Source: Candidatus Woesearchaeota archaeon
Lineage (GTDB): Archaea > Nanobdellota > Nanobdellia > Pacearchaeales > GW2011-AR1
Length of the DNA stretch: 64,000 nt
Assembly (NCBI GenBank): GCA_964355135.1
Contig: CAYHCG010000001.1
Coordinates: 146,138 to 210,137 of the forward strand
Reading direction: 5' to 3'
The translations under genes and the position numbers were made by a program. Shown here one piece after another: positions 4,409 through 53,271 of this stretch. The number at the start of each line of letters is the position of its first letter. The stretch's first letter is position 1. The notes under the pieces were generated by a model, which was not told the DNA's origin, ran no database searches, and saw only the letters and a program-made list of their open reading frames with translations.

Positions 4409-6118
4409 ATGGAAACAAAACAAAGAAGAAATATGAAGGGAGCAATTACTCTTGTACTAGCTCTGGCACTGGCTCTTATTGCCATGCCTCTTGTAGCTGC
4501 AGATAGTTATCAATTATACTGCCTTAGTAGCGGACAGGTACTTGATTTACCTGCTTTATGCAATCCTGAAATGGATAAGAGAACAGGACCTATCAATATC
4601 TGCATGCACATTCTTGACAATGGGAAAATATGCCCTGTTACCATCAATGTTTGTAATAATCTTGCATTAAGCTGTAGTTTTAATGGTGGGAATACCACTG
4701 TAGATCAAGATCCTCCACATATGGACATTAATTCTCCTGTAGAAGGAGAGATCTATGGAGATAGATCTATCTTAGTTGATATTGATCCTGATGAATCTGC
4801 AAGCCTATATTATATGGATAATGATGAAGAAAGATTAGGATGGAAACAACTTTGTTCTAGATGCTCTTCTTATTCTAGAGAAAGAAGCTTTAAAGAAGGA
4901 AGAAATGACTTAACATTTAAAGCTGTAGATGAGTCAGGAAACGAAGCAACTTTCGATGTAGTATTTTATATTGATAGCATAGATCCAAAGATATCGAAGA
5001 CTGCTCCTACAAAAGGTTTCGCAGGTGGAATATTCAATGTATCTTTCCAGGAATCAAGCCCTTCAGGTTTAGTACTAAATTATGGGAATATAGAAACTGG
5101 AATGAGATCACGTACTGTTGATATAGAAAACGACTGCACACAGAATGTTGACAAATATGCTTGTATGGTAGAAGTAGACTTATCAAACTTTGATGAGGAA
5201 ACTATAGAGTATAGTTTCGTACTAGAAGATATAGGCGGCAACAGTATTGAGAGTAAAATAATACTACTTCCTGTTGACTATAGTGATCCTAGAATCAACT
5301 CACTAGATTATACAATAGAAGGAAAATCAGTGACTTTCATGATTGATGTTACAGAGCAAAATCTAGACAAAATAACATATATTGATACAACGGACCCAAA
5401 AGCTAAAGAGAAAACATTATGCTCTGGAAGCCAGGGAATATTATGTGAAAAGAAAGTCAGTTTCAAAGATGGAGATCACACCGTAGCTATCAGAGCAAGA
5501 GATAAGGCAGGAAATATGGCAGAACAGACTGTTGTGTTCTTCACAGACTCTACAAAACCTAAGATTAAGAAAATGCTACCTACTGGAGGATTTGCATCTG
5601 GTGACTTTTATGTTGAATTTGAAGAGCAGAATGCTGTGAGCTTGATATTGCACTATGGTAATGGAGCTGACGATAGAAACAGTAATATTGACTTGAATGG
5701 TTGCGCAGACTTAGGCAGCGGAAAACATACCTGCACAGCTGATGTAGACTTAACAGATTATGATGGAGAGAGTATTCAGTACTGGTTTGAGATTAATGAT
5801 AGAGTCAACAATACTGTCTTGTCAAAGAGTATAAAACTTATGGTTGATATTACTAATCCTGCAATCACTGAGATAACTCATGTTGAGAATGGCGAGACAT
5901 CACAGGTTACTTTGAGTATTACAGAAATAAACTTTGATGAAGCAACGTACATGAATAATGATGATCTAACGCCTAAGGAAAGATCATTCTGCTCAAGTTT
6001 GAAAGCAGGCAAATGCACAAAGAAACTAGCATTAAATACCGGAGAGAATCATTTGACATTCTATGTCTATGATGACGCAGGCAATGCATTTGCACAGAAT
6101 TTAGAAATAACAGTTTAA
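4409..6118 (+). CDS. secreted Ig-like repeat protein (internal duplication; paralog of the C-terminal half of 46217-48364)
   Basis: The signal peptide is KGAITLVLALALALIAMPLVA. Two units of about 190 aa begin DSIDPKISKTAPTKGFAGG... and DSTKPKIKKMLPTGGFASG..., and each ends in a D-x-AGN motif. Confidence 0.8.
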   Translation: METKQRRNMKGAITLVLALALALIAMPLVAADSYQLYCLSSGQVLDLPALCNPEMDKRTGPINICMHILDNGKICPVTINVCNNLALSCSFNGGNTTVDQDPPHMDINSPVEGEIYGDRSILVDIDPDESASLYYMDNDEERLGWKQLCSRCSSYSRERSFKEGRNDLTFKAVDESGNEATFDVVFYIDSIDPKISKTAPTKGFAGGIFNVSFQESSPSGLVLNYGNIETGMRSRTVDIENDCTQNVDKYACMVEVDLSNFDEETIEYSFVLEDIGGNSIESKIILLPVDYSDPRINSLDYTIEGKSVTFMIDVTEQNLDKITYIDTTDPKAKEKTLCSGSQGILCEKKVSFKDGDHTVAIRARDKAGNMAEQTVVFFTDSTKPKIKKMLPTGGFASGDFYVEFEEQNAVSLILHYGNGADDRNSNIDLNGCADLGSGKHTCTADVDLTDYDGESIQYWFEINDRVNNTVLSKSIKLMVDITNPAITEITHVENGETSQVTLSITEINFDEATYMNNDDLTPKERSFCSSLKAGKCTKKLALNTGENHLTFYVYDDAGNAFAQNLEITV

Positions 6119-6188
6119 TTGATTGGATTAATAATTTTATTAATTTCATAAGAGAAAGTTTTAAATATTTCCGATGTTATAAGAAACT

Positions 6189-6401
6189 ATGCAGAATATA
6201 GTATCTAACTTTGAATCGTTAAGGGAAGAAGACTTTTCAGAATATGCTGGAGAGTGGATAGCAGTTATTAAGAGTAAAATAGTTGAACATGGGAATTCCT
6301 TTAAAGAAGTGTATAGCAAAGTGAAGTTGAAATATCCCATAGAAAGACCCCTTATAGGAAAAGTTCCAGAAAGAGATTTTATTACACTTTCTGTGCATTA
6401 A
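6189..6401 (+). CDS. small DUF5678-like protein
   Basis: The YAGEWIAVIKSKIVEHGNSFKEVYSKV pattern is present. The gene is separated by 1 nt from the downstream protease-like gene. Confidence 0.5.
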   Translation: MQNIVSNFESLREEDFSEYAGEWIAVIKSKIVEHGNSFKEVYSKVKLKYPIERPLIGKVPERDFITLSVH

Positions 6402-6402
6402 G

Positions 6403-6813
6403 ATGACCTTTTCTTTCAAATACAAACCTGAAAGATTAAGATCCGGATCGGTTTTATACAGGCCAATAATTCCCATTACGTTAGAAGGTAAAGAGAAGAT
6501 AGATGTTTTTTCTATACTGGACTCAGGTTCAGATATGACTATTATACCTATGGAAATAGCGGAGGTATTGGACATTAAATACAAAAAAGAAAATGAACTT
6601 TTTGGAATAACCGGAGGGCCTGTAAAAACACATGAGGGAAAATTAAGAATTTCTTTTGGTAAAGGACATGAGGTTTACAGCTTTGAAATACCCGTTCTTG
6701 TTCCTGAAAAAGAAAATCTCTCGGTCATTATTGGCAGAGCCGGATTTTTTAGCCAGTTTAAGATAACTTTTATAGAATCAGAAAGAAAAATGGAATTCAA
6801 GAAAATTATATAA
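6403..6813 (+). CDS. retropepsin-like (clan AA) aspartic protease domain protein
   Basis: The motif ILDSGSDMTIIP (D-S/T-G) lies in a 136-aa protein, and IIGRAGF lies near the C-terminus. Confidence 0.65.
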   Translation: MTFSFKYKPERLRSGSVLYRPIIPITLEGKEKIDVFSILDSGSDMTIIPMEIAEVLDIKYKKENELFGITGGPVKTHEGKLRISFGKGHEVYSFEIPVLVPEKENLSVIIGRAGFFSQFKITFIESERKMEFKKII

Positions 6814-6844
6814 AGGTGATAACTTTTTACTGGTTATAAGAAAA

Positions 6845-7105
6845 ATGGAAATAACATATGATAAAGACGCAGATGCATTGTACATTGAATTTAGCTATGC
6901 AGAATTCGTCAAGAATGAGATTCTTGAACGTGCTCGAGATGTTACAAAATCTCGACATGCTAAAAATAAGAAAATAGACAGCAAGACAATCATAGATATA
7001 GATAAAAATGATCAAATTATAGGCATAGAATTACTAGATGTTAGCCATCGTATCCCCAGAAATTTCTTACAGAAAGTAAAAGTAAATAATATAGAGTTAG
7101 AATAA
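6845..7105 (+). CDS. DUF2283-family small protein
   Basis: MEITYDKDADALYIEF...IIGIELLDVS matches the characteristic DUF2283 pattern. Confidence 0.65.
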   Translation: MEITYDKDADALYIEFSYAEFVKNEILERARDVTKSRHAKNKKIDSKTIIDIDKNDQIIGIELLDVSHRIPRNFLQKVKVNNIELE

Positions 7106-7600
7106 TTATCTTTGATAAATTGTTCCAACTGCTTCAACTATGTCTCGCAGACCTTGAACGTCGTTATAAACTTGTATGGAAGGATGTTTAGCAGCACCAA
7201 TGGCTAGAATGTCAGGTGTTAATTGTCTGTTGACTCGGTAAAATGAAAGGATAGGTAAATCTACTTCATATGCTTCTCTAATTAATTCTGCTGCTTGCGA
7301 AGAAGGCGTGCCTATATCTGCGATTATGAAATCAGAACTAATAAAGTTCCCGAACACTAATGCAGATATTCCGTGAGCGAGAGTATCCTCTGAGATATCC
7401 CTATGAGGCAAGAATGTTATGGCGGGGAATTTTTCCTCAAGAAGAGCGGCAATACTTTCATAGAAAGGAAATTCTCTTGTAGGTTCTGGCTCTTGAGGAC
7501 TAGAAGAAGTGGCAAAGGAAATCAATCTTTGAAGATCGTCTTCTCTAGACGCAATTCTCTTACACCTGTTAGGGTCAGGGTACCGGTTAATAACTACCAT
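7106..7600 (-). CDS. nucleoside 2-deoxyribosyltransferase-like (Rossmann-like) protein, tentative; tandem paralog 1
   Basis: 164 aa. FLPHRD...SDFIIADIGTPSSQAAELIREAYEVDLPIL resembles the NDT-like core (acidic residue after a G/S-x-x segment, then a P-I-L strand). Confidence 0.4.
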   Translation of the reverse strand: MVVINRYPDPNRCKRIASREDDLQRLISFATSSSPQEPEPTREFPFYESIAALLEEKFPAITFLPHRDISEDTLAHGISALVFGNFISSDFIIADIGTPSSQAAELIREAYEVDLPILSFYRVNRQLTPDILAIGAAKHPSIQVYNDVQGLRDIVEAVGTIYQR

Positions 7601-7645
7601 AAAATGATGTTTAAAAATAGGTATAAAAATATTGGTATGGTCAAC

Positions 7646-8140
7646 TTATCTTCCGTAAGCGCGCCTTACTGCTGAAACTATATCTCTGATGCCCTGGACA
7701 TTATTACGGATTATTATGGGATCAAAGTGTTGGGTTGAATATTCTAAAACTCTTTCAGCCGGTTTTCTGTCTGCTCGATAAAAAGGAAGTATGGGTACGT
7801 CATTCGAGTGGCTTTCCGCAATCATCGCCCCCACCTCATAAGAAGGAGTGGCTATATCTGCAATAACCAAGTCTGATTGCACTATGTTTCTAAACAACTC
7901 CTCATAGAGCAGAGGAGCAGAAGTTTGGCTGGCAGCATCACGATGAGGGAGAAATGTCTTTACTCCAACTACTCTCTCTAAGGCTCTAGCTGTACTCTCA
8001 TAGAGGCGAGATTCTTTTGCCGCATCGCTTTCATATTCAAATTGTGAAGAAGTTGCAAAGAAAACTTGGTTAAGAAACTTTTTTCTAGCCTGTACACTCT
8101 TCTGGACCGGAACATAGGGATTATTTATTACCATAAACAT
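7646..8140 (-). CDS. nucleoside 2-deoxyribosyltransferase-like protein, tentative; tandem paralog 2
   Basis: 164 aa and colinear with 7106-7600 (FLPHRD, SDLVIADIATPSYEVGAMIAESHSNDVPILPFYR, VQGIRDIV). Confidence 0.4.
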   Translation of the reverse strand: MFMVINNPYVPVQKSVQARKKFLNQVFFATSSQFEYESDAAKESRLYESTARALERVVGVKTFLPHRDAASQTSAPLLYEELFRNIVQSDLVIADIATPSYEVGAMIAESHSNDVPILPFYRADRKPAERVLEYSTQHFDPIIIRNNVQGIRDIVSAVRRAYGR

Positions 8141-14510: not shown

Positions 14511-14909
14511 TTATAAATTAATGTCCAACAATTTGCTTAAACTACTTAATATATCCCTAATTCTGGAAATGTTTTGCTTGATATAATTTTCATTTACCAT
14601 GAATCCCTCATAAGAAGTTCTATTTCTGTAATCCCTTATCTCCTGCAATAAAATCCTTACAGATTCCCCTAAATTATGCACCTTGCAGACATAATCTATT
14701 AATTCCTGATGTGCACCTTCTCCTTTAATTTTTATCCCTTTCGATAGAGCTAATGACTCCATCAATTTATGAATAATATCATAGTAATCCGTTAGTGTAT
14801 TTGAAGGATATTTATAGATGTCTGTTGTATTAAGTCTTTGTAGAGTTATCCTTGCCATTTCTATTAGCGCCTTTGATTTCTGAATGTCTGGAGTTATCTT
14901 TATTATCAT
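14511..14909 (-). CDS. HEPN domain protein (toxin partner of a nucleotidyltransferase)
   Basis: EIRDYRNRTSYEG matches the R-N-x3-Y HEPN (PF05168-like) motif. There is a 4-nt ATGA overlap with the upstream NTase gene. Confidence 0.75.
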   Translation of the reverse strand: MIIKITPDIQKSKALIEMARITLQRLNTTDIYKYPSNTLTDYYDIIHKLMESLALSKGIKIKGEGAHQELIDYVCKVHNLGESVRILLQEIRDYRNRTSYEGFMVNENYIKQNISRIRDILSSLSKLLDINL

Positions 14910-15445
14910 ACAAATACCTCTAGATACCCGTATAATATATTTCCGTTGATTATATTGTTCTTTAACTCCTTCGGATACTCTTTAAAATTAGAATTGAAGT
15001 GCAACTGGATTTTTCTCTTTAATGTTTTCTGGAATTTTTCCAAGCTTAAAACCTGTTTTCTTGATTCAATGAAGAGATCTATATCACTACTTTCTATATC
15101 TTCTCCTTTAGCATAAGAACCAAATAGTATGATTGAGCGAGGCATACATTTGTCTCTAACCTCAGCTATTATGCCACAATTATATATTTCTGAGAGGTTA
15201 TATGTTTTCTTTTCCATTTTATAAGAAAAGCTTTCCAGATCTGCTTTATATTCAGGAAATTTTCTTTTTCCCTTCTTTTCTATTATTTCTTTGATTAAGC
15301 CTTCTTTTTTGAGTAATGTAAGATAGTTCTTTACCGAAGTGTGGGCAAGTCCTGACTTTCTGCTTATTTCAATAAGATAATGATTTATTGACGGCTCTTC
15401 GAAAAATATTCCTGCAACTTTGAGTATATTACAATTATGTATCAT
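14906..15445 (-). CDS. wHTH-fused minimal nucleotidyltransferase (antitoxin-type MNT)
   Basis: ILFGSYAKGEDIESSDIDLFI matches the G-S-x9-D-x-D motif. An N-terminal winged-helix-like segment is present. Confidence 0.8.
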   Translation of the reverse strand: MIHNCNILKVAGIFFEEPSINHYLIEISRKSGLAHTSVKNYLTLLKKEGLIKEIIEKKGKRKFPEYKADLESFSYKMEKKTYNLSEIYNCGIIAEVRDKCMPRSIILFGSYAKGEDIESSDIDLFIESRKQVLSLEKFQKTLKRKIQLHFNSNFKEYPKELKNNIINGNILYGYLEVFV

Positions 15446-15556: not shown

Positions 15557-16000
15557 TTACGTTTTTGCAGGTAGAGATTGAGGGACATTTCTAGAGTAGA
15601 TAGTATCTATTACGGATTGGTCAACTTCTGCACCCATAATTTCAAGCATGCTTCTTAGTCTATCTTCTTTGGGGATCAATATTCCGTGTGCGTAATCATT
15701 CACAGTTTGTTTTGGAATGCCGGACTTTTTCGAAAAAGAGTGCTGATTAAACCCGGAGGTTCTCAGAGAATCATTAAACAATGCCGTAAAGGCAAGAGTT
15801 CTAGGCTCGGTTGCTCTTTTTTCACGCAGATGTTTCTGATAAGCAGTTGAACTAGAGAATCCTTTTTCTCTTACTATTGTCATTTGGTAAGCGGAAGCAT
15901 AGCTGATTTCCAATTTTTTTGCAATAGGGTTTACTCTTTCTCCCTCTTGGTACATTATCCATGCTTGTTCTCTCATCTCTTGAGATATTTTTCTTACCAT
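15557..16000 (-). CDS. dual-HTH DNA-binding protein (paralog of 20636-21103)
   Basis: An N-terminal HTH (REQAWIMYQEGERVNPIAKKLEISYASAY) is followed by an XRE-like HTH (FSKKSGIPKQTVNDYAHG). Confidence 0.7.
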   Translation of the reverse strand: MVRKISQEMREQAWIMYQEGERVNPIAKKLEISYASAYQMTIVREKGFSSSTAYQKHLREKRATEPRTLAFTALFNDSLRTSGFNQHSFSKKSGIPKQTVNDYAHGILIPKEDRLRSMLEIMGAEVDQSVIDTIYSRNVPQSLPAKT

Positions 16001-16110
16001 ATAATTATGGTAAAACTATCTTATTTAAATATTTTGGAAAATCTGGTTTAGTTTTAACTTTAAAGTTACTACATTACTAACATTTATAAACGATCCTCGT
16101 AGCTAATTTT

Positions 16111-16524
16111 ATGGCAAAAGTATTAGTTATGCAAGAACCTAAGTACGGAAGAACGTACGACAAGGCAGTAGAAGAAGTATGCGGACCGCATAGCAGAATC
16201 ATGTATGTGAGAAGTCTCTCTGCCTGTGCAAGGCAAATTCATGAAGGAGAGGTAGATGCGGTCATCATACCTGATGGGCAGGGAAGTGATAAAACTGTTT
16301 TTGATTTAGGCACACACTTGCGCAAATTACAGGGAACTAACTCTCCTCAACCAAGAATTTATGGATCAAGTGTAGGCATTTCAATTTATAGGGAATTTGC
16401 ATTAACTCCCGGAAGAGGATATAATCCTCATTATGCGAATGAGATGAAGGAAAGATACGGGCAAAAACCTGAAGACCTATTAAGGGGATGGCTCGCAGAC
16501 AGAGTTAAGAAAGAAACTACATAA
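16111..16524 (+). CDS. hypothetical protein (weak receiver/flavodoxin-like pattern)
   Basis: KVLVMQE...DAVIIPDG. A TATA-like TTTATAAA lies about 24 nt upstream. Confidence 0.45.
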   Translation: MAKVLVMQEPKYGRTYDKAVEEVCGPHSRIMYVRSLSACARQIHEGEVDAVIIPDGQGSDKTVFDLGTHLRKLQGTNSPQPRIYGSSVGISIYREFALTPGRGYNPHYANEMKERYGQKPEDLLRGWLADRVKKETT

Positions 16525-16526
16525 AA

Positions 16527-16844
16527 TTATTCTTTAGGTGCTTTCCCAAATGATCGTAAATTAACTTTCTTTGCAGTTTGCTTAAAGAAAATAGTGCTCA
16601 AATTATAACAAGGCATCGTATATACGCCATTATCAGCCTCATTTCTTGTAGGGTCTGCGCCATTTGTAGGCGGGCGCATAGAATATTGTACACATAGCGC
16701 ACCATCTTTTGTTATTATATCAATATAATATCCTTGTCGTTTACATCCGGAGTTACGAAAAACTAGCTCAATAGGGCTTGATTGTTGCCTATATTGGATT
16801 AATTCTCTTGTAGCTCGCTCTTTTCTACCTAGTGAACCTGTCAT
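16527..16844 (-). CDS. hypothetical protein
   Basis: 105-aa ORF. No motif recognised. Confidence 0.4.
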   Translation of the reverse strand: MTGSLGRKERATRELIQYRQQSSPIELVFRNSGCKRQGYYIDIITKDGALCVQYSMRPPTNGADPTRNEADNGVYTMPCYNLSTIFFKQTAKKVNLRSFGKAPKE

Positions 16845-16934
16845 AAAAAATACAAAAAGAGCGAGTTCTTAAGGATTTATGTCAAGAACACTTCGAGAAT
16901 AAATTTTTAAATACTTAATATACTTCTAATTAAC

Positions 16935-17888
16935 ATGGGATGGTTTGATACTCCAGAAGAACAAAACAGAAAAGATAATGAAAATTATGCGCGAGGAGTA
17001 GAAGATGGACAGAACGAAAGTTTTTTGGGAAGCATATTTCATGACATAGGTCAGACGATTGGAGACATTATACCTGTTCCTGAATGTGAAGAATCTGCAA
17101 GAAGTAGGGAGAATTACGAATCTGGCCGTGCATATGGAAGGGAAAACCCTGCCAGCAGTTCATCAGACGATGACAATGATTCAAGTGATGATTCAAGTAG
17201 CGATTCGTCAAGTTATGATTATAGTTCTTCGGATTCGGATGATGAAGAATATTACCCTACGCCAACTGCTCCTGCCCGTTATGTTGCTCCTGCACCAAAA
17301 GTCATCAGTCCAGAAGAACTAGCAAGAAGAGAAAGAAAAAACATTGCAGATAAAGTTGCAGGCATGACTTCAAAGGAAAGAGATGAAGCGCTGAAAAGGG
17401 AATACGAAGATGGAAAGGCAATATACAATGAACCAGATGAGAGAGTGCGCATGCAGATTATAAATTATCAAGTTATGGAAAAGTCTAATGATATATATGG
17501 AGTTATTATAATGAGCAGACAAGAAGATGAAACGTGGAGAGAGGCCGCTCAAGATAGGTTAGAAGTTCTTCTAAGGAAACATCCAGAAGTAAAGCACTTA
17601 GTAGATATGAACCCAAATATGCTTCTTGCATATGGCAGGAATCCAGATACCCAAGGAATAGAGGCACTTACCCAAGCAAGAGGTATTGAAACTGAGAAGA
17701 GTGAGGAGAAAAGAATAATGGCTCAGATAGACGCGATGACCAGAGATGAAGTATACACCTATTATGAAAATGCTCAGAAGGGTTCTATGCGCATTTATGC
17801 GCTAACAAGATACCATAAGATGCCAGATAAAAACGCAACTTTCTTAGGATTTTTAGGCAATGTTGCTAAAGCTATCTTTGGGAAATAA
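16935..17888 (+). CDS. head-domain family protein A (type-1 head, soluble tail with a C-terminal amphipathic segment)
   Basis: MGWFDTPEEQNRKDNENYARGVEDGQN head, then a Ser/Asp-rich linker, then a tail homologous to 18589-19323 (SNDIYGVIIMSR...RLEVLLRKHPEVKHLV). It ends FLGFLGNVAKAIFGK. Confidence 0.75.
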   Translation: MGWFDTPEEQNRKDNENYARGVEDGQNESFLGSIFHDIGQTIGDIIPVPECEESARSRENYESGRAYGRENPASSSSDDDNDSSDDSSSDSSSYDYSSSDSDDEEYYPTPTAPARYVAPAPKVISPEELARRERKNIADKVAGMTSKERDEALKREYEDGKAIYNEPDERVRMQIINYQVMEKSNDIYGVIIMSRQEDETWREAAQDRLEVLLRKHPEVKHLVDMNPNMLLAYGRNPDTQGIEALTQARGIETEKSEEKRIMAQIDAMTRDEVYTYYENAQKGSMRIYALTRYHKMPDKNATFLGFLGNVAKAIFGK

Positions 17889-17986
17889 AAATCTTTAAAC
17901 AAGCTTAAAGCACGCGGTTTTCTGCCTAAGTAATCTTGACATAAAAAAGAATAAATTTTTAAATAGTTTAAATTCTTATAATAAAC

Positions 17987-18586
17987 ATGACACAAGAAGA
18001 AGATAATGCTCTATACGAACTTGGAAGAAGGGATGGAGAGAACTCTACGTTTATGGATGGACTTGCCGGGATAGCAGGAAGCTTAATTCCCAATACTGCA
18101 GAAGGATTAAGGGAAAAAAAAATTTATGAGGCCGGATATAAATATAGCCTGGAACATAGGCATGATGGTGACCTTGCTTTCTGGGAACTTCCTAAAAACT
18201 CCTCTAGCCCCGATACATCATCATATGATGAGGAAGTGGAGACTGTAGAAGAAAGTTCAACAGAATACTCAAGCTCATCAGATGAAGAATCATGGTCTTC
18301 TCGCGCAAAGTCCGGACTTGGTTTATTAGTTTCCTTTGGTGTTATTAGTCTTTTGTCATTAGGCGGATTGGTATTAACCGGAATAATAATTACTAAAAAT
18401 AAAACCTCTGCGACTCCTTCGCAAGGGTATTTTATTTTAAATGATACTCCCAAGGAATCTAAACCCTATTTCATTTTAAATGATAAACCTCCATTGCCAA
18501 AACATTATAATGGATCGCCAAAATATCCCAAAGGCAACTATAATGGTCCAGATGATTTTGGCGGAGCAGCCCCTAGTCGGAGATAA
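17987..18586 (+). CDS. head-domain family protein B (type-2 head, single TM)
   Basis: MTQEEDNALYELGRRDGEN head, an acidic Ser-rich linker, and the TM segment GLGLLVSFGVISLLSLGGLVLTGIII. Confidence 0.7.
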   Translation: MTQEEDNALYELGRRDGENSTFMDGLAGIAGSLIPNTAEGLREKKIYEAGYKYSLEHRHDGDLAFWELPKNSSSPDTSSYDEEVETVEESSTEYSSSSDEESWSSRAKSGLGLLVSFGVISLLSLGGLVLTGIIITKNKTSATPSQGYFILNDTPKESKPYFILNDKPPLPKHYNGSPKYPKGNYNGPDDFGGAAPSRR

Positions 18587-18588
18587 AA

Positions 18589-19323
18589 ATGACACAAGAA
18601 GAAGATAATGCGATTTATGCTGAAGCAGTAAGAGATGGGCAGAAAGCCGGCTTTATTGGGAGTGTTGCCCATGACTGGGCCAGGATGCTAAATGATCTTC
18701 TTCCATGCGATGCAGAAGTAAGAAGAAAAGAAGAAATAAGAGATTCAGGATTTAAATATGGTCTAGATAATCCTGCAAGTTCAACTTATGAAGAAGAAAC
18801 TAGGGAAGAAGAGAGCTCGACTGATTACGGAGAATATGAACCTTATACTGCTCCCGTACAACAAGCACCCCCCATAGTTGCACCAAAAGAAAAGAAACAA
18901 AATACTCCTAAACTTAATAATTACACTAGAAACGCAGTTTTGTATAGTAATGATATATACTCCACTATTATTTTTAGCAGAAGCAGTGATGAAGCATGGA
19001 GGGAAGCGGGAAGCGCAAGACTTGAAGTACTTTTGAAAAGACATCCTGAAATAAGACATTTAGTAAAAAAAGATTGGACTGAAATCTATAACCTGTCAGA
19101 GAATGACAAAGAAGGCAAGGGCGCGCTTGGACTAGCAAAAGAACTTGATAATAAAGAAAAAGAAGAAAACCGGATGAAGTCAGAAATAGATAAAATGAGC
19201 AGAGAAGAAGTTAGAGATATTGCACATACAAGAGGACATCCCATGGAATTATATGCCTGGGAAAGATATGGTAAAATGCCCCAATTTACCGGAATTCTTG
19301 GACGGCTTTTTGGGAGGAATTAA
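18589..19323 (+). CDS. head-domain family protein C (type-2 head, soluble tail with a C-terminal amphipathic segment)
   Basis: MTQEEDNAIYAEAVRDGQK head. The tail is homologous to protein A and ends FTGILGRLFGRN. Confidence 0.75.
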   Translation: MTQEEDNAIYAEAVRDGQKAGFIGSVAHDWARMLNDLLPCDAEVRRKEEIRDSGFKYGLDNPASSTYEEETREEESSTDYGEYEPYTAPVQQAPPIVAPKEKKQNTPKLNNYTRNAVLYSNDIYSTIIFSRSSDEAWREAGSARLEVLLKRHPEIRHLVKKDWTEIYNLSENDKEGKGALGLAKELDNKEKEENRMKSEIDKMSREEVRDIAHTRGHPMELYAWERYGKMPQFTGILGRLFGRN

Positions 19324-19324
19324 T

Positions 19325-20059
19325 ATGGGATGGTTTGATACTCCAGAAGAACAAAATAGGAAAGATAATGAAAATTATGCGGAAGGAGTAAAAGAAGGCC
19401 AAAATGCTGGATGGTTTGCGGGATTAGGCAGAGAAATAGGAGAGATCGTTACTATCGGTGTTCCTAAATCAGCAGAATATGAAAGAAAACAAGGGATACG
19501 TGATGCGGGAATTAAATATGGGATGGATCACCCTGCGAGGAGTTCTGATGATGACGATGAGGAAGATAATTCCAGTTACTCCGGAGAATCAAGTTATGAT
19601 TCAGATTATTCTTCAAGTTCATCTTACGATTCAACTCCTACTAAAAGAGAGACCCCTAAGTCAGAAGGATCTCCTCTAGGAGCTTTAGTGGCTGGAGTAT
19701 TATTAACTGTCGGACTTATAGGTGCTGCTTATAGTGTAAGGCCTGAACAAAACGTAAAAGACTCTTCCAGCTCGGCTCTGGAGCAGAGTGTTGAACCTCA
19801 ATCGCATGTAGTTGCTCCAATATACCGCGCACCTGCAAGAGCGCCAACACCACCAGTTGCCTGGGATAAAATAACAATATATGAATATTCAGATGGCACA
19901 GTCATGCAAGTTCGTGAAAATTCAACGGGAATTTATATGACGAGTAGAACAAATAATCCGGCTAAATTAGCAAATGAACTGAGATCACTTGAAGAAGATG
20001 CAGCCGCCCGTGAACAGACCATAAATGCTCAAAGGCAGATTAATAGAAAATCTCCTTAG
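19325..20059 (+). CDS. head-domain family protein D (type-1 head, single TM)
   Basis: The internal ATG at 19325 (codon 36 of track ORF 19220-20059) restores MGWFDTPEEQNRKDNENYAEGV. It lies 1 nt after the upstream stop. The TM segment is LGALVAGVLLTVGLIGAAYSV. Confidence 0.7.
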   Translation: MGWFDTPEEQNRKDNENYAEGVKEGQNAGWFAGLGREIGEIVTIGVPKSAEYERKQGIRDAGIKYGMDHPARSSDDDDEEDNSSYSGESSYDSDYSSSSSYDSTPTKRETPKSEGSPLGALVAGVLLTVGLIGAAYSVRPEQNVKDSSSSALEQSVEPQSHVVAPIYRAPARAPTPPVAWDKITIYEYSDGTVMQVRENSTGIYMTSRTNNPAKLANELRSLEEDAAAREQTINAQRQINRKSP

Positions 20060-20100
20060 ACAAGATAAATGTTTAAGTATCTTAAAAGATTAATACTCTA

Positions 20101-20304
20101 ATGGAATACAAAGAAATCGAGCGAGCAAGGAAATACCTGAGCGGACTTGGACTGCGGGCCGTTTATGTTCCAAGGCAGGATGGCTGGAGAGAGCATTTTG
20201 CCCTTCTAGATGATGAAGATTTTCCTGTTTATGCAGTTAATTCTGCTCTTCATTTAGTTAAAGAAATAAAAGATCGCAGGGATAAGGTTAGAGCGTTAAC
20301 CTAA
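20101..20304 (+). CDS. hypothetical small protein
   Basis: 67-aa ORF, convergent with 20301-20561 and overlapping it by 4 nt. Confidence 0.4.
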   Translation: MEYKEIERARKYLSGLGLRAVYVPRQDGWREHFALLDDEDFPVYAVNSALHLVKEIKDRRDKVRALT

Positions 20305-20561
20305 ATAACATCATAAATTCTATTTCCAGAATCAAATTTGTACTCTGTGGCTAAAACTTCCATAAGTTGGTAATGTTTATTTATTTGACCCTGCTTAAGC
20401 GAATCTGTTTCAGAACTTAAAAGTACATCTAATTGAGCTATCTCAAGAAGAACTGCCCTTTCATCTCCTTTATTTCTCATTAGTCTAACAAGGCCCTCGG
20501 TTTTCCAGGCCATGTCTACTACCTGTTCCCTAGTAACTTGAGATTTTATTACATTCGTCAT
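20301..20561 (-). CDS. hypothetical small protein
   Basis: 86-aa ORF. No motif recognised. Confidence 0.4.
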   Translation of the reverse strand: MTNVIKSQVTREQVVDMAWKTEGLVRLMRNKGDERAVLLEIAQLDVLLSSETDSLKQGQINKHYQLMEVLATEYKFDSGNRIYDVI

Positions 20562-20635
20562 ATATTTCTCACAAATTTGCCCTATAAAAATATTTCCATG
20601 GCGTTTTTTTAGCTGTAGAAATCTTTGATATTTTT

Positions 20636-21103
20636 TTATAAATTAAGAGATCTTGGTATTCCTTCTTGCGGAACCTCATTTCTTTGAGGATAAATTATTC
20701 CAAGAGTTTCCTTGTCGGAAGACACGCCCATAATTTCTAGTAATCCCATTAATCTGCTTACCTGAGGTATTGCTCTCCCATGCACATAATCGTGAATAGT
20801 CTGTTTGGCAACACCTGCCAGCTTACCTAAGGAATAGGAATTATAACCTGAGTTTCTCATTGAATCGTTAAATAAAGTTCTTAATGCGGCATGTCTTGGG
20901 TCTTGGGCCCTTCTTGATGCACGTTCCTTTTGGTAAGCAGTAGTGCTATGAAATCCTCTCTCCCTTAAATTTGTTAAGTTATACACAGAACTATGGCTAA
21001 TCCCTAACGTATCTGCAATTTCTCTAGTTTTTTTTCCTTCAGTATGCATAATCCAGGCTTGTTCTCTCATCTCTGGAGTTATAGGTGTAGATCTTTTAGC
21101 CAT
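20636..21103 (-). CDS. dual-HTH DNA-binding protein (paralog of 15557-16000)
   Basis: Colinear with 15557-16000 (PEMREQAWIMHTEGKKTREIADTLGISHSSVY ... LGKLAGVAKQTIHDYVHG). A similar TATTTAAAT promoter lies upstream of both. Confidence 0.7.
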   Translation of the reverse strand: MAKRSTPITPEMREQAWIMHTEGKKTREIADTLGISHSSVYNLTNLRERGFHSTTAYQKERASRRAQDPRHAALRTLFNDSMRNSGYNSYSLGKLAGVAKQTIHDYVHGRAIPQVSRLMGLLEIMGVSSDKETLGIIYPQRNEVPQEGIPRSLNL

Positions 21104-21171: not shown

Positions 21172-21420
21172 TTATTTGTATACTCTGCCTCTTTTGTCAA
21201 TAATCCTAACCCATATAATTTTTCTTTCGAAATCTATATCCATTAATATTCTGTAATCTCCTATTCTCAAATTATAAAAATCTCCTTCATAATGCTGTAA
21301 AAATCTTATTGGATTTTCCTTGATACTTTCAAGTTTGTTAATAATTCTTAAAGAAATATCCTTGGGCAATTTGTCTAAAAAGTCTTGAGCGTTTGAACCA
21401 ATATTTACAGAAAAACTCAT
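21172..21420 (-). CDS. relE: RelE/ParE-family toxin
   Basis: FYNLRIGDYRILMDIDFERKIIWVRIIDKRGRVYK is the hallmark RelE C-terminal pattern. Confidence 0.85.
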   Translation of the reverse strand: MSFSVNIGSNAQDFLDKLPKDISLRIINKLESIKENPIRFLQHYEGDFYNLRIGDYRILMDIDFERKIIWVRIIDKRGRVYK

Positions 21421-21629
21421 TTTTTTAATATTCTCTTTTTAACATTTTCAAGAGAAACATATTGTGATTCAGGTGTTTTTCTTGCTTTATCTAGTTCTTC
21501 TTTAGCCCAATCTGTCAATTCTCCTTCACTATCTTCTTCCATTTTGGACATTAACATTTTCTTTATGATCTCCATATCTCTTCTTATTTTTAATATGTCT
21601 TCCCTCATTGATTTCATTTCTGTTTCCAT
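21417..21629 (-). CDS. cognate antitoxin (small, charged, helical)
   Basis: 70 aa with a 4-nt overlap with the relE-like gene. Contains the ELTDWAKEELDKARKTP pattern. Confidence 0.6.
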   Translation of the reverse strand: METEMKSMREDILKIRRDMEIIKKMLMSKMEEDSEGELTDWAKEELDKARKTPESQYVSLENVKKRILKK

Positions 21630-22824: not shown

Positions 22825-23430
22825 ATGCATATAAAGAAAATTAATATTGTAGTAATGAATGCTTTTAGAAGCAATATTTTTCTTAGTAAGACAATTAGAG
22901 AAATTTCTTCAATAGTTGATAAAGATTATCCAAATGTGTTTGATGCTATGAGAGAACTTGCGGATAAAGAGATAATTAAAATTAAAAAAGTCGGAAAAGC
23001 AAATCTATGTGAATTGTTTTTAAATAAAGAATCTATTTCTCTGTTGTCATATCTTGACGAACAAGAGGCGTTCTTAAGAAAAATACCCAATTTGGACAAA
23101 ATATTAGAATACAAAGAGTTTTTAGATGATATAATTTTAGTAACAGGAAGTTATGCAAAAAAAAGAGAGAATTCTAAGTCAGATATAGATTTAGTTTTAA
23201 TCACTAGGGGTAAAGCTTTAAATAAACTAAAACTTCTAGAGAATTTAACTTCTCTATTTTACCCAAAATATCATATTATTGTTATTACCTACAAAGATTT
23301 TATAGATATGCTATTAGATAAAAAACCGACTTTTGGAAAAGAAATATTTAATAACAGGCTACTATTTAGGGGTGCAGAAAGGTATTATGAGTTAATAAAG
23401 GAAGCAATTGAAAATGGATTCAGAGGTTAG
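22825..23430 (+). CDS. wHTH-fused minimal nucleotidyltransferase
   Basis: ILVTGSYAKKRENSKSDIDLVLI (G-S...D-x-D), with an N-terminal wHTH-like region. Confidence 0.8.
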   Translation: MHIKKINIVVMNAFRSNIFLSKTIREISSIVDKDYPNVFDAMRELADKEIIKIKKVGKANLCELFLNKESISLLSYLDEQEAFLRKIPNLDKILEYKEFLDDIILVTGSYAKKRENSKSDIDLVLITRGKALNKLKLLENLTSLFYPKYHIIVITYKDFIDMLLDKKPTFGKEIFNNRLLFRGAERYYELIKEAIENGFRG

Positions 23431-23887
23431 TCTGCTTTTGGCAAGAGCGGAAGATGAATTTCTTCTGGCAAAGAAAGATATGCAAATTTCTACAGACAAG
23501 AGAATAAAAGAAATTTTGGGAATTCTGCAAGATAAGACTTTTTTCTATTCAGTAATTGCCCACTCATACTACTCTATCTTTCATACTGCTAAAGCATACT
23601 TATTAAGCAAAAATATTAAGACAGTTCCTCCAGAAGAACATAAAAAAACATACAATTTATTCTCAAAATTTGTTCATAATGGTGAACTTGATAAAGAATT
23701 ACTAATAATTTACGAAAGCGAGATAATGAAGGCAGATTCGTTGCTTGCAATATTTAAAGATGAAAAAAAGAAGAGGGGAATGTTTACCTACAATGTTAAA
23801 TCAGAGGCGAACAGACCCTATGCGCAAGAATCGGTTAATAATGCAGAAAAATTCGTTTCTACAATGAAGAATATCCTAAAAGAATAG
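23408..23887 (+). CDS. HEPN domain protein
   Basis: AHSYYSIFHTAKAYLLSKNI is a typical HEPN N-terminal helix pattern. The gene overlaps the NTase gene, and its stop abuts the stop of 23888-24808. Confidence 0.7.
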   Translation: MKMDSEVSLLLARAEDEFLLAKKDMQISTDKRIKEILGILQDKTFFYSVIAHSYYSIFHTAKAYLLSKNIKTVPPEEHKKTYNLFSKFVHNGELDKELLIIYESEIMKADSLLAIFKDEKKKRGMFTYNVKSEANRPYAQESVNNAEKFVSTMKNILKE

Positions 23888-46216: not shown

Positions 46217-48364
46217 ATGAAAATGGGAAAGTTATCCTACTTACTTGTAATACTCTTAGTTGCATTGACCTTTATTGGACTAACAAGCGCTGCATTGATT
46301 ATCAATGAAATTGAAGTAAATCCTCCAGGCAGTGAAGCTGGAAATGAATGGATTGAACTATTTAATGATGGTACGCCAGTTAATCTAAGCGGATGGTATA
46401 TCCAAGATAAAGACGGAAATAATTATAGTTTTGGAGAAGTTATAGTAACTCAGTTTTACGTTCTTGACGGGTTAAGTGGACTGGAAAATTTAAATCAGGA
46501 TTTAAACTTGTATGATAAGAATGGCGCTATGAAAGATTCTTATGAGAATTTTGATGATATTCTAAACAGTGATATGACTTGGAGCAGGATGCCGGACGGG
46601 ACAGGAAATTTTGATTTTAAGACTAGCACTAAAGGATTGCCAAATGAGGAAATAGAGATAAATGATAGAGATTCAACTCCAAGTTGCATTACCGCTTCAA
46701 CGAATGTAACTTTGAGCGCGAGTGTGACTGGATTTTGTGTTACAAATGTAGTTTTCTCTGTACTTGTAGATGGAAGCTGGATAAACTTTAACGGAATAAA
46801 AAACGGTGATGAATACAGCGCTAGAATACCTTCAATACTACTGAATGCCTCGGAGAGTGTTGACTGGACTATGTCTGCAACTGACTGTTTTAACACTACT
46901 ATGCAAGATGGAATAGAGAGTTTTTATGTAAATTCAAAAACTATGTTAGAAATTGATCCTACAAATCCTAGTGGTTTAGGTGGATGGTATGTGACTGAGC
47001 CTTTTTTTGAATTGATCAACCCTGATGCTGCGATGTTATTCTATCAGTGGGATTCCCAGCAAAGCAATGAATATACTGCTCCTTTTGGATTAGAAGATGT
47101 TCCTAACAATGCAAATGTAACTGGAGGAATACTGGAATTAAATTATTGGAGTGATGTCTGTAATGAAGAACGTCATAGGGTATTGCTCAAAACAGACTTT
47201 AAAGATCCGGAAATAGAAGACTTGCAACCTGCGCAAGGATCAGTAGTAATCAATAATCCAAGGCCAACTATAAGCGCATTACTTGATGAAGTATATCAGT
47301 CAAATTCTGGAATTAATAAGAGTGAAGTTGAGATGTATCTAGATGGAGTAAAGGTAAATGCTGGAGTAGAAACGTCTGGCAGCATTTTAGATGCAGAGAT
47401 ATCTTTTACTCCTTTAAGTGATCTATCTGAAGGGAACCATAGCGTTAGGATAGATGCAAAAGACAATGCTGGAAGAAGTTCAAGCATGGGCTGGAACTTT
47501 ACTCTTACTCTTAGTGTTGCAATTGAGTTTGAGGTTAATAGCCCTATAAATAAAATCTATAAGAGCAAGAAAGTGCCTTTTAACATAAGTGCCTCTGAAG
47601 TTCTTGATACTATTGAATATATTAATTATAATGAAAACACTCCAAGATGGAGATTATTATGCCACAGTTGCATGGAATATGGCAGTATGAGGAAAAAGGA
47701 AAGAAGCCTAGTGGAAGGCGAGAATAATATAACTATAAGAGGAATTAGTATTTACGGACAGGTAATTGAAAGGAATGTTACGTTGATGATTGAATCCAGA
47801 TCTCCAAAAATAAGTAAAACTCTTCCGCAGAGAGGTTTTACATCAGGCAATTTCACTATAGTGTTTGAAGAAGAGAATCCTGTGAATGTGACTTTGGTTT
47901 ATGGAAATTCCTTTAGCGGCATGCGCACGGCAGAAGTAGACTATTCCCAATGTGAAACAGAAAGAGACTTTGAGTGCAGCATTTTAGTTGATTTGATAGA
48001 TTATCAGGAGGCAGAAATTGAGTATTACTTTATTGTTAGTGATATAGCAAACAATACTGCTATTTCAAGAAGTAGAGAACTGATAGTTGACGCAGTTCCT
48101 CCCGCCATTAATGAATTTGGATATAATATTACAGATAGAAAGGTTGACTTTATGTTTAATATTACTGAAATGAATCTAAAGAAAGTGTATTACACTGATC
48201 ACAATGAAGCAAATCCACGCGGCAGGACTTTATGCACAAGACTTGTTGATGAACTATGTAAGAAGAAAGTGACTTTCTCGAGTGGAGAACATAATCTTAC
48301 CTTGACTGTTGAAGACAAAGCAGGGAACAAAGAAAATATTGAGAATATAGTTTTTGTTGTTTAA
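46217..48364 (+). CDS. secreted protein with an N-terminal lamin-tail domain (LTD) and C-terminal Ig-like units
   Basis: There is a signal peptide. LIINEIEVNPPGSEAGNEWIELFNDGTPVNLSGWYIQD is the LTD signature. The C-terminal half is colinear with 4409-6118. Confidence 0.8.
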   Translation: MKMGKLSYLLVILLVALTFIGLTSAALIINEIEVNPPGSEAGNEWIELFNDGTPVNLSGWYIQDKDGNNYSFGEVIVTQFYVLDGLSGLENLNQDLNLYDKNGAMKDSYENFDDILNSDMTWSRMPDGTGNFDFKTSTKGLPNEEIEINDRDSTPSCITASTNVTLSASVTGFCVTNVVFSVLVDGSWINFNGIKNGDEYSARIPSILLNASESVDWTMSATDCFNTTMQDGIESFYVNSKTMLEIDPTNPSGLGGWYVTEPFFELINPDAAMLFYQWDSQQSNEYTAPFGLEDVPNNANVTGGILELNYWSDVCNEERHRVLLKTDFKDPEIEDLQPAQGSVVINNPRPTISALLDEVYQSNSGINKSEVEMYLDGVKVNAGVETSGSILDAEISFTPLSDLSEGNHSVRIDAKDNAGRSSSMGWNFTLTLSVAIEFEVNSPINKIYKSKKVPFNISASEVLDTIEYINYNENTPRWRLLCHSCMEYGSMRKKERSLVEGENNITIRGISIYGQVIERNVTLMIESRSPKISKTLPQRGFTSGNFTIVFEEENPVNVTLVYGNSFSGMRTAEVDYSQCETERDFECSILVDLIDYQEAEIEYYFIVSDIANNTAISRSRELIVDAVPPAINEFGYNITDRKVDFMFNITEMNLKKVYYTDHNEANPRGRTLCTRLVDELCKKKVTFSSGEHNLTLTVEDKAGNKENIENIVFVV

Positions 48365-48440
48365 AAAATACAGCGAAAGTAGTTTTACTGAAAAAAAGTG
48401 GTAAGATTGATTTAAATAAAAGAAATTTATTAGAAAAGAC

Positions 48441-52037: not shown

Positions 52038-52040
52038 TTG

Positions 52041-52072
52041 TTACCTTGGTCAGTAAATACAAAAATATTGCG
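52041..52072 (+). promoter_or_regulatory. conserved upstream motif, copy 1
   Basis: TTACCTTGGTCAGTAAATACAAAAATATTGCG lies about 20 nt upstream of the TATA-like CTTTATATAG of 52118-53155. Confidence 0.5.
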
Positions 52073-52117
52073 ATGGAGAACGATAACCTTTATATAGGGA
52101 CGAAAGTGAGGTAGAAC

Positions 52118-53155
52118 ATGCAAAAACAAACTCTAGGAAAATTAGGATTGGTCGGATTGATGCTAGGTAGCACTTTCGGATGCAGAAACAGAATCCAGCC
52201 TGAAACTTTACCTGCTAACAATGTTATTTTTGGAAGAACAATGGATGTTTATGAAGAAGATTTACAAAACTCTCCTGAAGGTTTACTTGATGAATTTAAC
52301 AGTATGCCTCTAGAAATTGCACCTTGCGCAAATGACGCTCCTGCTATAGTAGAAGTTGAACTATTTGATGATTTGAATAATAGAGATGCTCCTTTTGATG
52401 TTCAAGAAGTACGAAGTGCACAACACCCAAATGTAACTTATCTTCAATTTACAGATAATGCTGGAGAATTTGTAGATGGAGAATACTGGACAATGAAAGT
52501 ACGTTCTGGATGCAATAATGTTATTGCTGATTCAACTAGAGTTGTTAGTGTTCGTTATCATACAGGAAGCGGTCCTGCAAGATTAGATGATAGATTAGAT
52601 AATGTAGAAGATGAAGTTTTCGGATATGTTGTAGATGATGGAAAATGCGATTCAGCTTTAGGTGAAAATTCAGCAAACTCTCCAAGAGATTGCTACCAAA
52701 TGCCAACAGATCTTACAGACCTTCTAGCAGATACTTACACAGTTATTGTTGACGCAAGTGGAAACGAAGTAAGCCCAATGACAGTAACAGCTGGAAGCGA
52801 AACTGTATTCAGAGCTCAGTTACATATGCCTACAGAATTAGAAGATAAAGTTGGAGCTCCTTCAAACTTAGCAATTACAGAATTAGGATATACTGGAGCA
52901 GATGACTGCTTTAGAGTTGTCTCAGTTGGACAGCCTCAAAGAACAGGCGAACATCACGATATGGTAACTTACGAATCAACATTCAAAATGTTGAAAGAAC
53001 TTGGCTGTGCTCAGAATTATGAATTAGTTCATGCAAGCTTTGGACTTGATATAGGAAATGGAGATGTTAACTTCAATGACTCTGAAGAAGCAATGAAATC
53101 CAGAAGACCTTCTTACCAAACTACTGGTTACACTGCTCAGATCAACGGAAATTAA
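52118..53155 (+). CDS. secreted acidic protein with a lipobox-like signal
   Basis: LGLVGLMLGSTFGCRN. Confidence 0.65.
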   Translation: MQKQTLGKLGLVGLMLGSTFGCRNRIQPETLPANNVIFGRTMDVYEEDLQNSPEGLLDEFNSMPLEIAPCANDAPAIVEVELFDDLNNRDAPFDVQEVRSAQHPNVTYLQFTDNAGEFVDGEYWTMKVRSGCNNVIADSTRVVSVRYHTGSGPARLDDRLDNVEDEVFGYVVDDGKCDSALGENSANSPRDCYQMPTDLTDLLADTYTVIVDASGNEVSPMTVTAGSETVFRAQLHMPTELEDKVGAPSNLAITELGYTGADDCFRVVSVGQPQRTGEHHDMVTYESTFKMLKELGCAQNYELVHASFGLDIGNGDVNFNDSEEAMKSRRPSYQTTGYTAQINGN

Positions 53156-53271
53156 TTTTTTGAGTTTTTATTACTACTAAGTTTTAAGTTTGTGTTATTG
53201 ATTTTACTTTACAAATTCATTATTAGAGATCAAAACTTTGCCATTAACAAACAACGATGAAACTTGATTTG

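Follow-up and report, generated by a model that had tools for sequence, protein, structure and literature searches.

In ZipA, FtsA and MinD, as well as in anti-sigma factors, a small domain is combined with a long disordered linker and with a transmembrane (TM) or terminal amphipathic helix. In the "deca-GX3" repeats of Yae1/Lto1 and the GxxxG repeats of FliH type, helices follow an (aromatic/acidic)-x-x-G-x-x-x-G pattern, and such glycine-motif helices mediate tight helix-helix association in Yae1/Lto1. The same membrane-tethering logic and likewise patterned helices are predicted together in the products of four consecutive genes, A to D, located in a 64,000-nucleotide stretch of a Candidatus Woesearchaeota archaeon (assembly GCA_964355135.1, contig CAYHCG010000001.1), this whole stretch being called the window throughout. 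The likeness to ZipA, FtsA, MinD and anti-sigma factors is one of plan, with no sequence or fold relationship, an orientation opposite to that of ZipA, and sigma factors being absent in archaea. A to D represent the expansion in tandem of a modular protein family, rare and hitherto undescribed, whose members come chiefly from DPANN archaea (Woesearchaeota/Nanoarchaeota). The four genes and the parts of their products are laid out as follows, as deduced from the table of open reading frames (ORFs), the model predicted by AlphaFold2 (AF2), Kyte-Doolittle hydropathy and a hidden Markov model (HMM) of the tail:

16935-17888, plus strand: gene A, 317 amino acids (aa; ORF table)
16935-17153, plus strand: head of A, aa 1-73
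17154-17309, plus strand: Ser/Asp/Tyr linker of A, aa 74-125
17310-17885, plus strand: predicted all-alpha tail of A, aa 126-317 (helical at 126-315 in AF2; tail HMM 246 bits)
17841-17879, plus strand: predicted terminal amphipathic helix of A, aa 303-315 (separate short helix in AF2)
17987-18586, plus strand: gene B, 199 aa (ORF table)
17987-18160, plus strand: head of B, aa 1-58
18161-18310, plus strand: acidic Ser-rich linker of B, aa 59-108
18311-18394, plus strand: predicted TM segment of B, aa 109-136 (Kyte-Doolittle 2.33 at aa 117-135)
18395-18583, plus strand: Lys/Pro/Tyr-rich C-terminal region of B, with a duplicated PYFILND motif
18589-19323, plus strand: gene C, 244 aa (ORF table; GGAG 8 nt upstream)
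18589-18777, plus strand: head of C, aa 1-63
18778-18909, plus strand: linker of C, aa 64-107
18910-19320, plus strand: tail of C, aa 108-244, a shorter A-type tail ending in GILGRLFGRN (tail HMM 171 bits)
19325-20059, plus strand: gene D, 244 aa, start taken at 19325 (ORF table; GGGAGG upstream)
19325-19537, plus strand: head of D, aa 1-71
19538-19669, plus strand: linker of D, aa 72-115
19670-19741, plus strand: predicted TM segment of D, aa 116-139 (Kyte-Doolittle 2.09)
19742-20056, plus strand: C-terminal region of D, about 105 aa

An earlier note on this DNA had described four consecutive plus-strand genes with a common N-terminal head, no signal peptide, a Ser/Asp/Glu-rich linker behind each head, and two tail types, namely a soluble-type domain in A and C and a single TM segment in B and D. 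This description proved accurate in each respect, the genes and heads being recovered by the ORF table and SEG-filtered BLASTP, the lack of signal peptides by the ORF translations, the linkers by composition, and the tails by BLASTP and Kyte-Doolittle hydropathy; the tight packing of the last three genes also stands, with 2 nt between B and C and 1 nt between C and D. Regarding D, the start chosen by the ORF list and by metagenome gene calling alike falls within C, upstream of the ATG at 19325. This ATG is preferred because it gives D an N-terminus identical to that of A (MGWFDTPEEQNRKDNENYA), because GGGAGG stands 8 nt before it, and because the 5' ends of A (16928-17014) and D (19318-19404) share 90% DNA identity over 87 nt, including the 7 nt before the ATG. 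Such near-identity suggests a recent gene conversion between the first and the last gene of the array. Beyond this 87-nt stretch, the A and D heads are far more diverged, and the 5' ends of B and C have in common only MTQEEDNA(L/I)Y.

Pairwise BLASTP of the first 80 aa, with the SEG low-complexity filter on, relates every head to every other, from A-D (51% identity, E 1.6e-27) through C-D (42%, E 5e-17), A-C (42%, E 1.7e-15), B-C (39%, E 1e-13) and B-D (33%, E 4e-9) down to A-B (31%, E 4e-7). The likeness being retained under this filter, it is no by-product of the Ser/Asp-rich stretches; in other words, the head similarity lies outside the linkers and the low-complexity artefact feared in the earlier note can be set aside. 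The head consensus reads M(T/A)K(S/T)x(D/N)DExYExGVxDGQ, then 20-30 residues, then (E/D)EIYxKGYxYGxxH, with a strongly conserved extreme N-terminus and with G13, G17, G49 and G53 invariant in the alignment, which makes two GxxxG motifs. As the two YExGxxxG segments are mutually related (hhalign prob 84.6%, E 6.8e-6), the head results from the duplication, within itself, of a YExGxxxG motif whose helices are predicted to flank a hydrophobic/amphipathic middle helix. In the AF2 model of A (predicted local distance difference test, pLDDT, of 79 overall), the head consists of three helices at residues 7-27, 30-45 and 52-70, where the motif segments correspond to helices 1 and 3 (pLDDT 87-93) and the hydrophobic/amphipathic middle segment to helix 2.

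In line with the earlier note, which could not assign it, this head fits no described family. Neither the heads nor the tails of A to D find a match in Pfam, NCBIfam, PHROGs or PADLOC, Pfam scans of each family member at E<=10 return no consistent match for heads or tails, and profiles of the head, the tail and both fused find nothing below E 0.1 among Protein Data Bank (PDB) sequences. The Foldseek comparison that had been suggested for the head and the A/C tail, carried out with the A model on PDB as well as BFVD, yielded no hit with E under 0.2 and consequently no significant analogue for either part.

Behind the head, the linkers of A to D contain 20-41% Ser+Thr, 22-28% Asp+Glu and 4-9% Tyr, and in the A model pLDDT drops below 50 at residues 82-110, within a non-helical stretch spanning 71-125. 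Along their full length, A and C align through the whole tails (BLASTP, E 7e-37), and the tail of A is modelled with pLDDT above 90 over residues 200-290 (AF2). All full-length tails in the family end in a hydrophobic/amphipathic helix, i.e. GILGRLFGRN, GLIELLFGLFE, GIFGFLELILKKLF and FRAFLRKLLRVLLK, with a hydrophobic moment (muH) of 0.32-0.72 vs. 0.27 for the MinD peptide. Considered as a MinD/FtsA-type targeting sequence, the end of A and C thus presents a predicted helix, conserved at the C-terminus of all full tails, with a muH comparable to or above that of the MinD peptide, and by analogy with MinD and FtsA it is a putative peripheral membrane anchor; the C end GILGRLFGRN resembles the MinD tail. 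One strongly hydrophobic 19-mer is present in each of B and D and none in A or C (Kyte-Doolittle). All four proteins are therefore very probably membrane-associated, B and D via the TM helix and A and C via the amphipathic end helix, which supports the membrane association proposed for the block in the earlier note.

Two side observations concern these C-terminal parts. In the tail, three "(D/E)..(V/W/F)R..A..RL" units recur, without statistical support. In B, a 19-nt direct repeat (18428-18446 and 18467-18485, 39 nt apart) encodes the doubled KPYFILND(T/K)P. Affiliation of the A/C tail to HEAT/ARM alpha-solenoids was rejected, since the top Foldseek matches are HEAT, ARM and TOG domains but with E 3-9 and prob <=0.1, and neither a consistent Pfam match nor a PDB sequence match was obtained.

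The family was searched by full HMMER with a head and tail profile made from the four window proteins only, against 1.84 billion representative proteins (E<=1e-3). This search returned 17 matches, most of them from Woesearchaeota/Nanoarchaeota (DPANN) genomes and four of them A to D themselves, and the family was extended to about 25 members; numbers preceded by P and L designate proteins and loci hereafter. A word-indexed homologue search overlooks relatives that full HMMER finds: it returned only the query itself for C as well as for one of the two flanking regulators (HTH2, see below), and with a 13-sequence head profile it gave four short proteins, i.e. P0011 and P0014, which were known already, P0018 and P0019. 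The closest head relatives belong to metagenome-assembled genomes of Candidatus Woesearchaeota and to that of "Nanoarchaeota archaeon H52-bin126_1", whose name bears the label of well H52 and where one tail-type and one TM-type gene stand on separate contigs (L022, L023); the host of the window is most likely a DPANN archaeon too. Identical copies of protein C occur only on contigs from the 0.1/0.2 µm filter fractions of the Hainich groundwater wells H51/H52.

Across these members, the head is combined with varied partners. An acidic linker and a tail follow it in P0008, P0009 and the L022 protein. A Ser-rich linker, a TM helix and a variable C-terminus follow it in P0012, P0017 and the proteins of L023, L028 and L024, the latter from Woesearchaeota. 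In P0013, P0015 and P0016, the same head and Ser-rich linker are joined to a CFI-box-CTERM domain (NF041770, 46.6-58.5 bits, cut-off 40), a family for which a literature search on the CFI-box found no paper; A to D themselves are no CFI-box-CTERM proteins, having no NCBIfam match. P0011 is a head with a Cys-rich mini-domain and P0014 a head alone, and headless tail proteins also exist (P0003, P0006 and P0010).

The most telling combinations involve a second head. In L009 (Woesearchaeota), the tail-type P0008 starts 7 nt after a 385-aa gene (6837-7994 of that locus) built on the plan N-domain, Ser/Asp/Tyr linker, TM helix and C-domain, where the N-domain is a different, beta-rich head (H2) with E.V.Y.DG..VG.IE.ET and internal TFLGFGPTEEVTRD repeats. 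This H2 head recurs in L030 (39% identity, E 2e-11), followed there by a Ser-rich linker and a tail (5411-5941 and 5689-6525), the fusion of H2 to the tail running through an apparent frameshift in a run of seven G (5721-5727) that may reflect either a slippery site or faulty assembly. Since H2 stands on a TM anchor in L009 and apparently on a tail in L030, heads and anchors are interchangeable modules on the same type of acidic tether. Besides, the pairing of a TM-type with a tail-type gene occurs at least twice independently, i.e. in the window and in L009.

At the boundary between linker and hydrophobic segment, a Cys motif was further observed, namely AGCGC in the TM-type proteins of L023 (aa 92-96), L028 and L024 (aa 92-95), and GGC(F/Y)L(T/S)(T/S)AC in the CFI-box types P0013, P0015 and P0016; B and D have no such motif, which is reminiscent of Cys-containing sorting or lipidation signals. 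Two candidates were discarded from the family. The score of P0005 (754 aa, with Cys-rich tandem repeats) arises from 12 repeats of one 25-aa stretch and is regarded as spurious; this eukaryote-like protein has an apparent C-terminal fungal-type cellulose-binding module, and its repeats hold ERKYEIREDGCQYPLD, resembling the second head motif RRKEEIRDSGFKYGLD, a likeness that is probably due to chance and amplified by repetition. For L025 (Saprospiraceae), the tblastn match was unconfirmed by the head HMM.

Among described families, ribosome modulation factor (RMF) and Yae1_N come nearest to the head. With RMF it shares a short N-terminal helix carrying an R-G-Y-x-x-G motif; the CPY and W..GW features of RMF have no counterpart in the heads. 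Pfam RMF (PF04957) is matched by 2 of 13 family heads (best E 0.0033) and by none of A to D at E<=1, NCBIfam RMF yields a single match (E 0.2), and when the head profile is aligned to RMF of E. coli with hhalign, the prob is 5.8% over 18 columns, no RMF chain being picked up in PDB by that profile; membership in RMF/Rmf-CrpP was rejected. Yae1_N (PF09811) is likewise matched by 2 of 13 heads (best E 0.01, below the Pfam threshold), and membership was rejected as well, the heads having just two GxxxG units with a spacer in between. Both weak similarities can be traced to the short (R/K)GYxxG helix motif. Unlike Yae1/Lto1, moreover, the heads have GxxxG units split by a hydrophobic helix of 20-30 aa, the family is membrane-tethered, archaeal and rare, and there is no sign of a client of Rli1/ABCE1 type. 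RMF and Yae1_N are consequently kept as hints of how the head may work rather than of what it is.

On either side of the block lie two minus-strand genes with a double helix-turn-helix (HTH), and between these and the block four orphans:

15557-16000, minus strand: HTH1, dual-HTH paralog 1, 147 aa (HTH_3 22.2 bits, cut-off 23; N-terminal HTH_7)
16111-16524, plus strand: orphan o137, 137 aa, no family match
16527-16844, minus strand: orphan o105, 105 aa, no family match
20101-20304, plus strand: orphan o67, 67 aa, no family match
20301-20561, minus strand: orphan o86, 86 aa, no family match
20636-21103, minus strand: HTH2, dual-HTH paralog 2, 155 aa (HTH_3 31 bits, cut-off 23)

The earlier note was right in taking the flanks for dual-HTH paralogs: HTH1 and HTH2 share 51% identity (E 2e-50) and both combine a C-terminal HTH_3 match with N-terminal matches of HTH_7/HTH_23/HTH_38 type. 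HTH2 passes the HTH_3 cut-off and HTH1 falls just under it; the flanking genes group with the XRE/Cro-C1 regulators. In the AF2 model of HTH2 (pLDDT 83), the C-terminal half superposes on HipB, ClgR, restriction-modification controller proteins and ImmR (Foldseek prob 1.0, target-normalised template-modelling score 0.6-0.78) and is predicted to be an ordinary XRE/Cro-type fold. What differs from such regulators is the additional N-terminal half, a three-helix HTH whose matches to HTH_23, HTH_38, HTH_7 and the N-terminus of IS630 are all sub-threshold. An IS630/Tc1-type transposase was rejected for both flanking genes, as only the N-terminal 106 of 299 profile positions are covered, with 23 bits for a cut-off of 100, and there is no catalytic domain in 147 or 155 aa.

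The earlier note read this layout as a self-contained, regulator-flanked system and suggested scoring how often the head co-occurs with the dual-HTH gene. In all retrievable homologue loci, the six reading frames were scanned by means of HMMs (hmmsearch/phmmer) for heads, tails, dual-HTH proteins and the four orphans, many of these contigs being only 1-3 kb long, which limits neighbourhood information. Within that range, neither a dual-HTH homologue nor a homologue of any of the four orphans was found at any other fetched family locus, and more than one head gene per locus is a property of the window only, a single head gene standing at every other one. In the DPANN genomes, the neighbours are housekeeping genes, as read from translations, i.e. 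GAPDH and the CCA-adding enzyme in H52-bin126_1, and ValRS, aRF1, NAC and endonuclease III in L024; a Hjc resolvase gene adjoins P0009. The self-contained system is thus not borne out, and homologues at the other fetched loci are singletons without HTH neighbours.

The near-identical promoter ascribed to the HTH pair is real as far as its presence goes, TATTTAAAT being found 21-29 nt upstream of both genes; it is not special to the pair, the genome at large using it as TATA box. With 23 occurrences in the window, TTTAAATA usually lies some 22 nt ahead of a start codon, as it does for A and B; boxes ending about 22-23 nt before starts are seen for example at 1187, 15467 (minus strand), 16906, 17958, 40861, 46188, 48411 and 60804 (minus strand). 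TATA boxes so close to start codons imply that transcripts are mostly leaderless. The promoter regions of the block are the following:

16876-16934, plus strand: promoter region of A, with an 18-nt element TTTATGTCAAGAACACTT at 16876-16893 and TATA TTTAAATA at 16906-16913, ending 22 nt before the ATG
17928-17986, plus strand: promoter region of B-C-D, with the 18-nt element inverted at 17928-17945 and TATA at 17958-17965, at the same spacing

Over 42 nt, the region upstream of A shows 86% identity to that upstream of B. The 18-nt element TTTATGTCAAGA(A/T)(C/T)ACTT, also given as TTTATGTCAAGAWYACTT, has these two copies only in the 64-kb window, each ending exactly 13 nt upstream of the A or B TATA box, in opposite orientations, and was not found in the HTH promoters. 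C and D have GGAG motifs of Shine-Dalgarno type in place of promoters. Transcription is predicted to proceed from A alone and from a B-C-D operon, both leaderless, and the 18-nt element may be an operator or an upstream activating site through which A and B-C-D are possibly co-regulated. The two copies also form inverted repeats that bracket A and its promoter, 1034 nt apart; while an 18-nt imperfect inverted repeat alone is not rare, identical spacing to two homologous promoters is.

As to function, the reading preferred here, and put forward tentatively, is that A to D are membrane-attached proteins whose heads, borne on tethers, associate mutually or via a common partner, by which TM-type subunits would be connected with peripheral-type ones. 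The N-terminal head, about 60 aa long and with two YExGxxxG helices derived from an internal duplication, would pack on its middle helix, and a disordered acidic Ser/Asp/Tyr tether of 45-55 aa would hold it near the membrane. Attachment would be provided either by one TM helix with a variable C-terminal region (B and D) or by a domain of some 180 aa that resembles helical repeats and closes with an amphipathic helix (A and C). Heads would then bind each other, or one common partner, through their GxxxG helices, a type of helix that serves for tight packing of helices against each other, and TM-type and peripheral-type subunits joined in this way would form a membrane-proximal scaffold. We infer the heads to be cytoplasmic, for which the A and C heads, identical in type yet borne by proteins without a TM helix, argue. 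Several points weigh against this proposal. The family mostly consists of unlinked single genes elsewhere, so a dedicated A/B/C/D complex is no conserved feature. The label of helical-repeat scaffold for the tail draws on insignificant HEAT/ARM matches only. The topology of the TM-type proteins is ambiguous, and charges flanking the TM helix outside the window would, by the positive-inside rule, place the head outside the cell.

This last point supports another reading, deemed unlikely, where the head and linker of the TM-type proteins would be extracellular (N-out), the linker being an O-glycosylated stalk and the head a surface module of an envelope/glycosylation region. In four of the five TM-type homologues outside the window (P0012, P0017, L023 and L024), Lys/Arg residues number 0-1 on the N-side of the TM helix vs. 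2-5 on the C-side, and the N-terminal parts have a net charge of -4 to -15. Ser/Thr-rich stalks beside membrane anchors are typical of archaeal surface glycoproteins, and the window near the block encodes PMT_2/EpsG-like and GT4 glycosyltransferases as well as very large Ig-like or cadherin-like surface proteins; were the heads outside, the linker could be O-glycosylated and these PMT_2/EpsG-like and GT4 genes would become relevant. However, a stretch of 90-120 highly charged residues would need to be moved through the membrane with no signal peptide, the flanking charges are balanced in B (2/2) and D (3/2), and A and C carry the same head without a TM helix, on a K/R/E-rich helical tail that looks cytoplasmic. 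Somewhat less doubtful is the possibility that the heads all dock onto a third party, for instance the ribosome, an ATPase or a protein of cell division or of the cytoskeleton, A to D being alternative tethers comparable to FtsA, ZipA and SepF for FtsZ. The same head is encountered in five C-terminal settings (TM helix, tail, CFI-box domain, Cys-rich mini-domain, no further domain), as is usual for an adaptor, and the strong conservation of its extreme N-terminus, as well as the sub-threshold matches of heads to RMF and Yae1_N, point the same way. Yet no partner is identifiable, no neighbour gene is conserved across loci, and the RMF likeness fails at the level of profiles.

That the block could be cargo of a mobile element or variable island, e.g. 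for exclusion, defence or anti-defence, appears quite improbable. Toxin-antitoxin-type pairs do lie on both sides, i.e. nucleotidyltransferase (NTP_transf_2/Polbeta) with HEPN at 14511-15445 (minus strand) and at 22825-23887 (plus strand), in opposite orientations, together with a ParE-family toxin and its small upstream partner at 21172-21629 (minus strand), which suggests a variable accessory island within a glycosyltransferase/PMT_2 envelope gene region. Elsewhere, P0012 belongs to an element with a TrwC relaxase and is encoded at a distance of 570 nt from a tyrosine integrase, and P0014 is encoded between Replic_Relax and an integrase, both on high-GC contigs (G+C content 0.59-0.65) taken to be bacterial; the block itself has a somewhat higher G+C content (0.37-0.40 vs. 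0.31-0.34), and the combination of tandemly expanded paralogs and gene conversion suits conflict loci that evolve fast. Against this, no tRNA was found at the block, no direct repeats flank it except the paralogous HTH coding sequences, and no integrase is encoded by the genes called between 8.6 and 29 kb of the window, so that an integrated element (integrative and conjugative element, integrative and mobilisable element, or provirus) was rejected for want of tRNA, att-like repeats or integrase at the block borders. A viral or plasmid origin was rejected too, with no match in IMG/VR, INPHARED, PLSDB, PHROGs or BFVD, as was a known anti-phage system, PADLOC-DB v2 having no match for A to D or the orphans and only weak generic HTH matches for the regulators. 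Besides, the DPANN homologues stand among housekeeping genes, and comparable G+C values occur elsewhere in the window. As for the flanking dual-HTH paralogs regulating A to D or being sequestered by them, as an archaeal analogue of anti-sigma/sigma pairs, this is very unlikely and largely refuted. It would account for the presence of 51%-identical genes on both sides, for the 18-nt element upstream of the A and B promoters only, as a possible operator, and for the plan of B and D (helical N-domain, linker, TM helix, variable C-terminus), which mimics that of anti-sigma factors. But the other family loci searched are devoid of dual-HTH homologues, the C-terminal fold of HTH2 is an ordinary XRE one, the TATA motif is generic, the 18-nt element is missing from the HTH promoters, and both genes are paired with other orphans, HTH1 being divergent from o137 and HTH2 co-directional with o86, which lies downstream of it. 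Neither HTH1 nor HTH2 is consequently placed as a dedicated regulator of A to D.

Rather than a new kind of system, which is not demonstrated, the novelty lies at the level of protein and domain families. The family, with its shuffled modules, is present in several Woesearchaeota/Nanoarchaeota genomes, and in the window it is amplified to four copies. It provides two new domain definitions for family databases, one for the head with its double YExGxxxG and one for the roughly 180-aa tail with an amphipathic end helix. DPANN archaea have tiny genomes where most envelope and cell-contact functions are unassigned, and the family offers a testable candidate for a lineage-specific membrane-proximal machine. 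Its rarity (17 of 1.84 billion representatives) limits its reach, and DPANN genomes hold many uncharacterised families anyway. Extending the preferred reading, proteins of this type might form a DPANN-specific membrane scaffold, with interchangeable heads (GxxxG or beta-rich H2) joined through acidic Ser/Asp/Tyr tethers to a TM anchor or to a peripheral helical platform, assembling via the heads into an envelope, division or host-contact apparatus, a proposal regarded as unlikely in this extended form; in a bolder variant, the RMF-like RGYxxG helices would be functional and the heads would bring ribosomes, or some other large machine, to the membrane.

Regarding the four orphans, nothing was found in Pfam, PHROGs, NCBIfam or PADLOC for o137, o105, o67 and o86, and o137, o105 and o86 have no informative PDB sequence match. 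Inspected by eye, o137 (MAKVLVMQEP...VDAVIIPDGQG...) recalls a receiver or flavodoxin-like domain in degenerate form, a likeness that no profile or PDB sequence match backs. Further away in the window, large predicted surface proteins (715, 1198 and 1455 aa) are encoded at 46217-59601 (plus strand) and also at 4409-6118, with Lamin-tail, Big_13, Big_9, cadherin-like, CARDB and MopE-type metal-binding motifs; such proteins are typical candidates for DPANN host attachment. Archaeal signals in the window include, besides the TATA boxes, a DUF1616 gene and an HVO_0163-type HTH.

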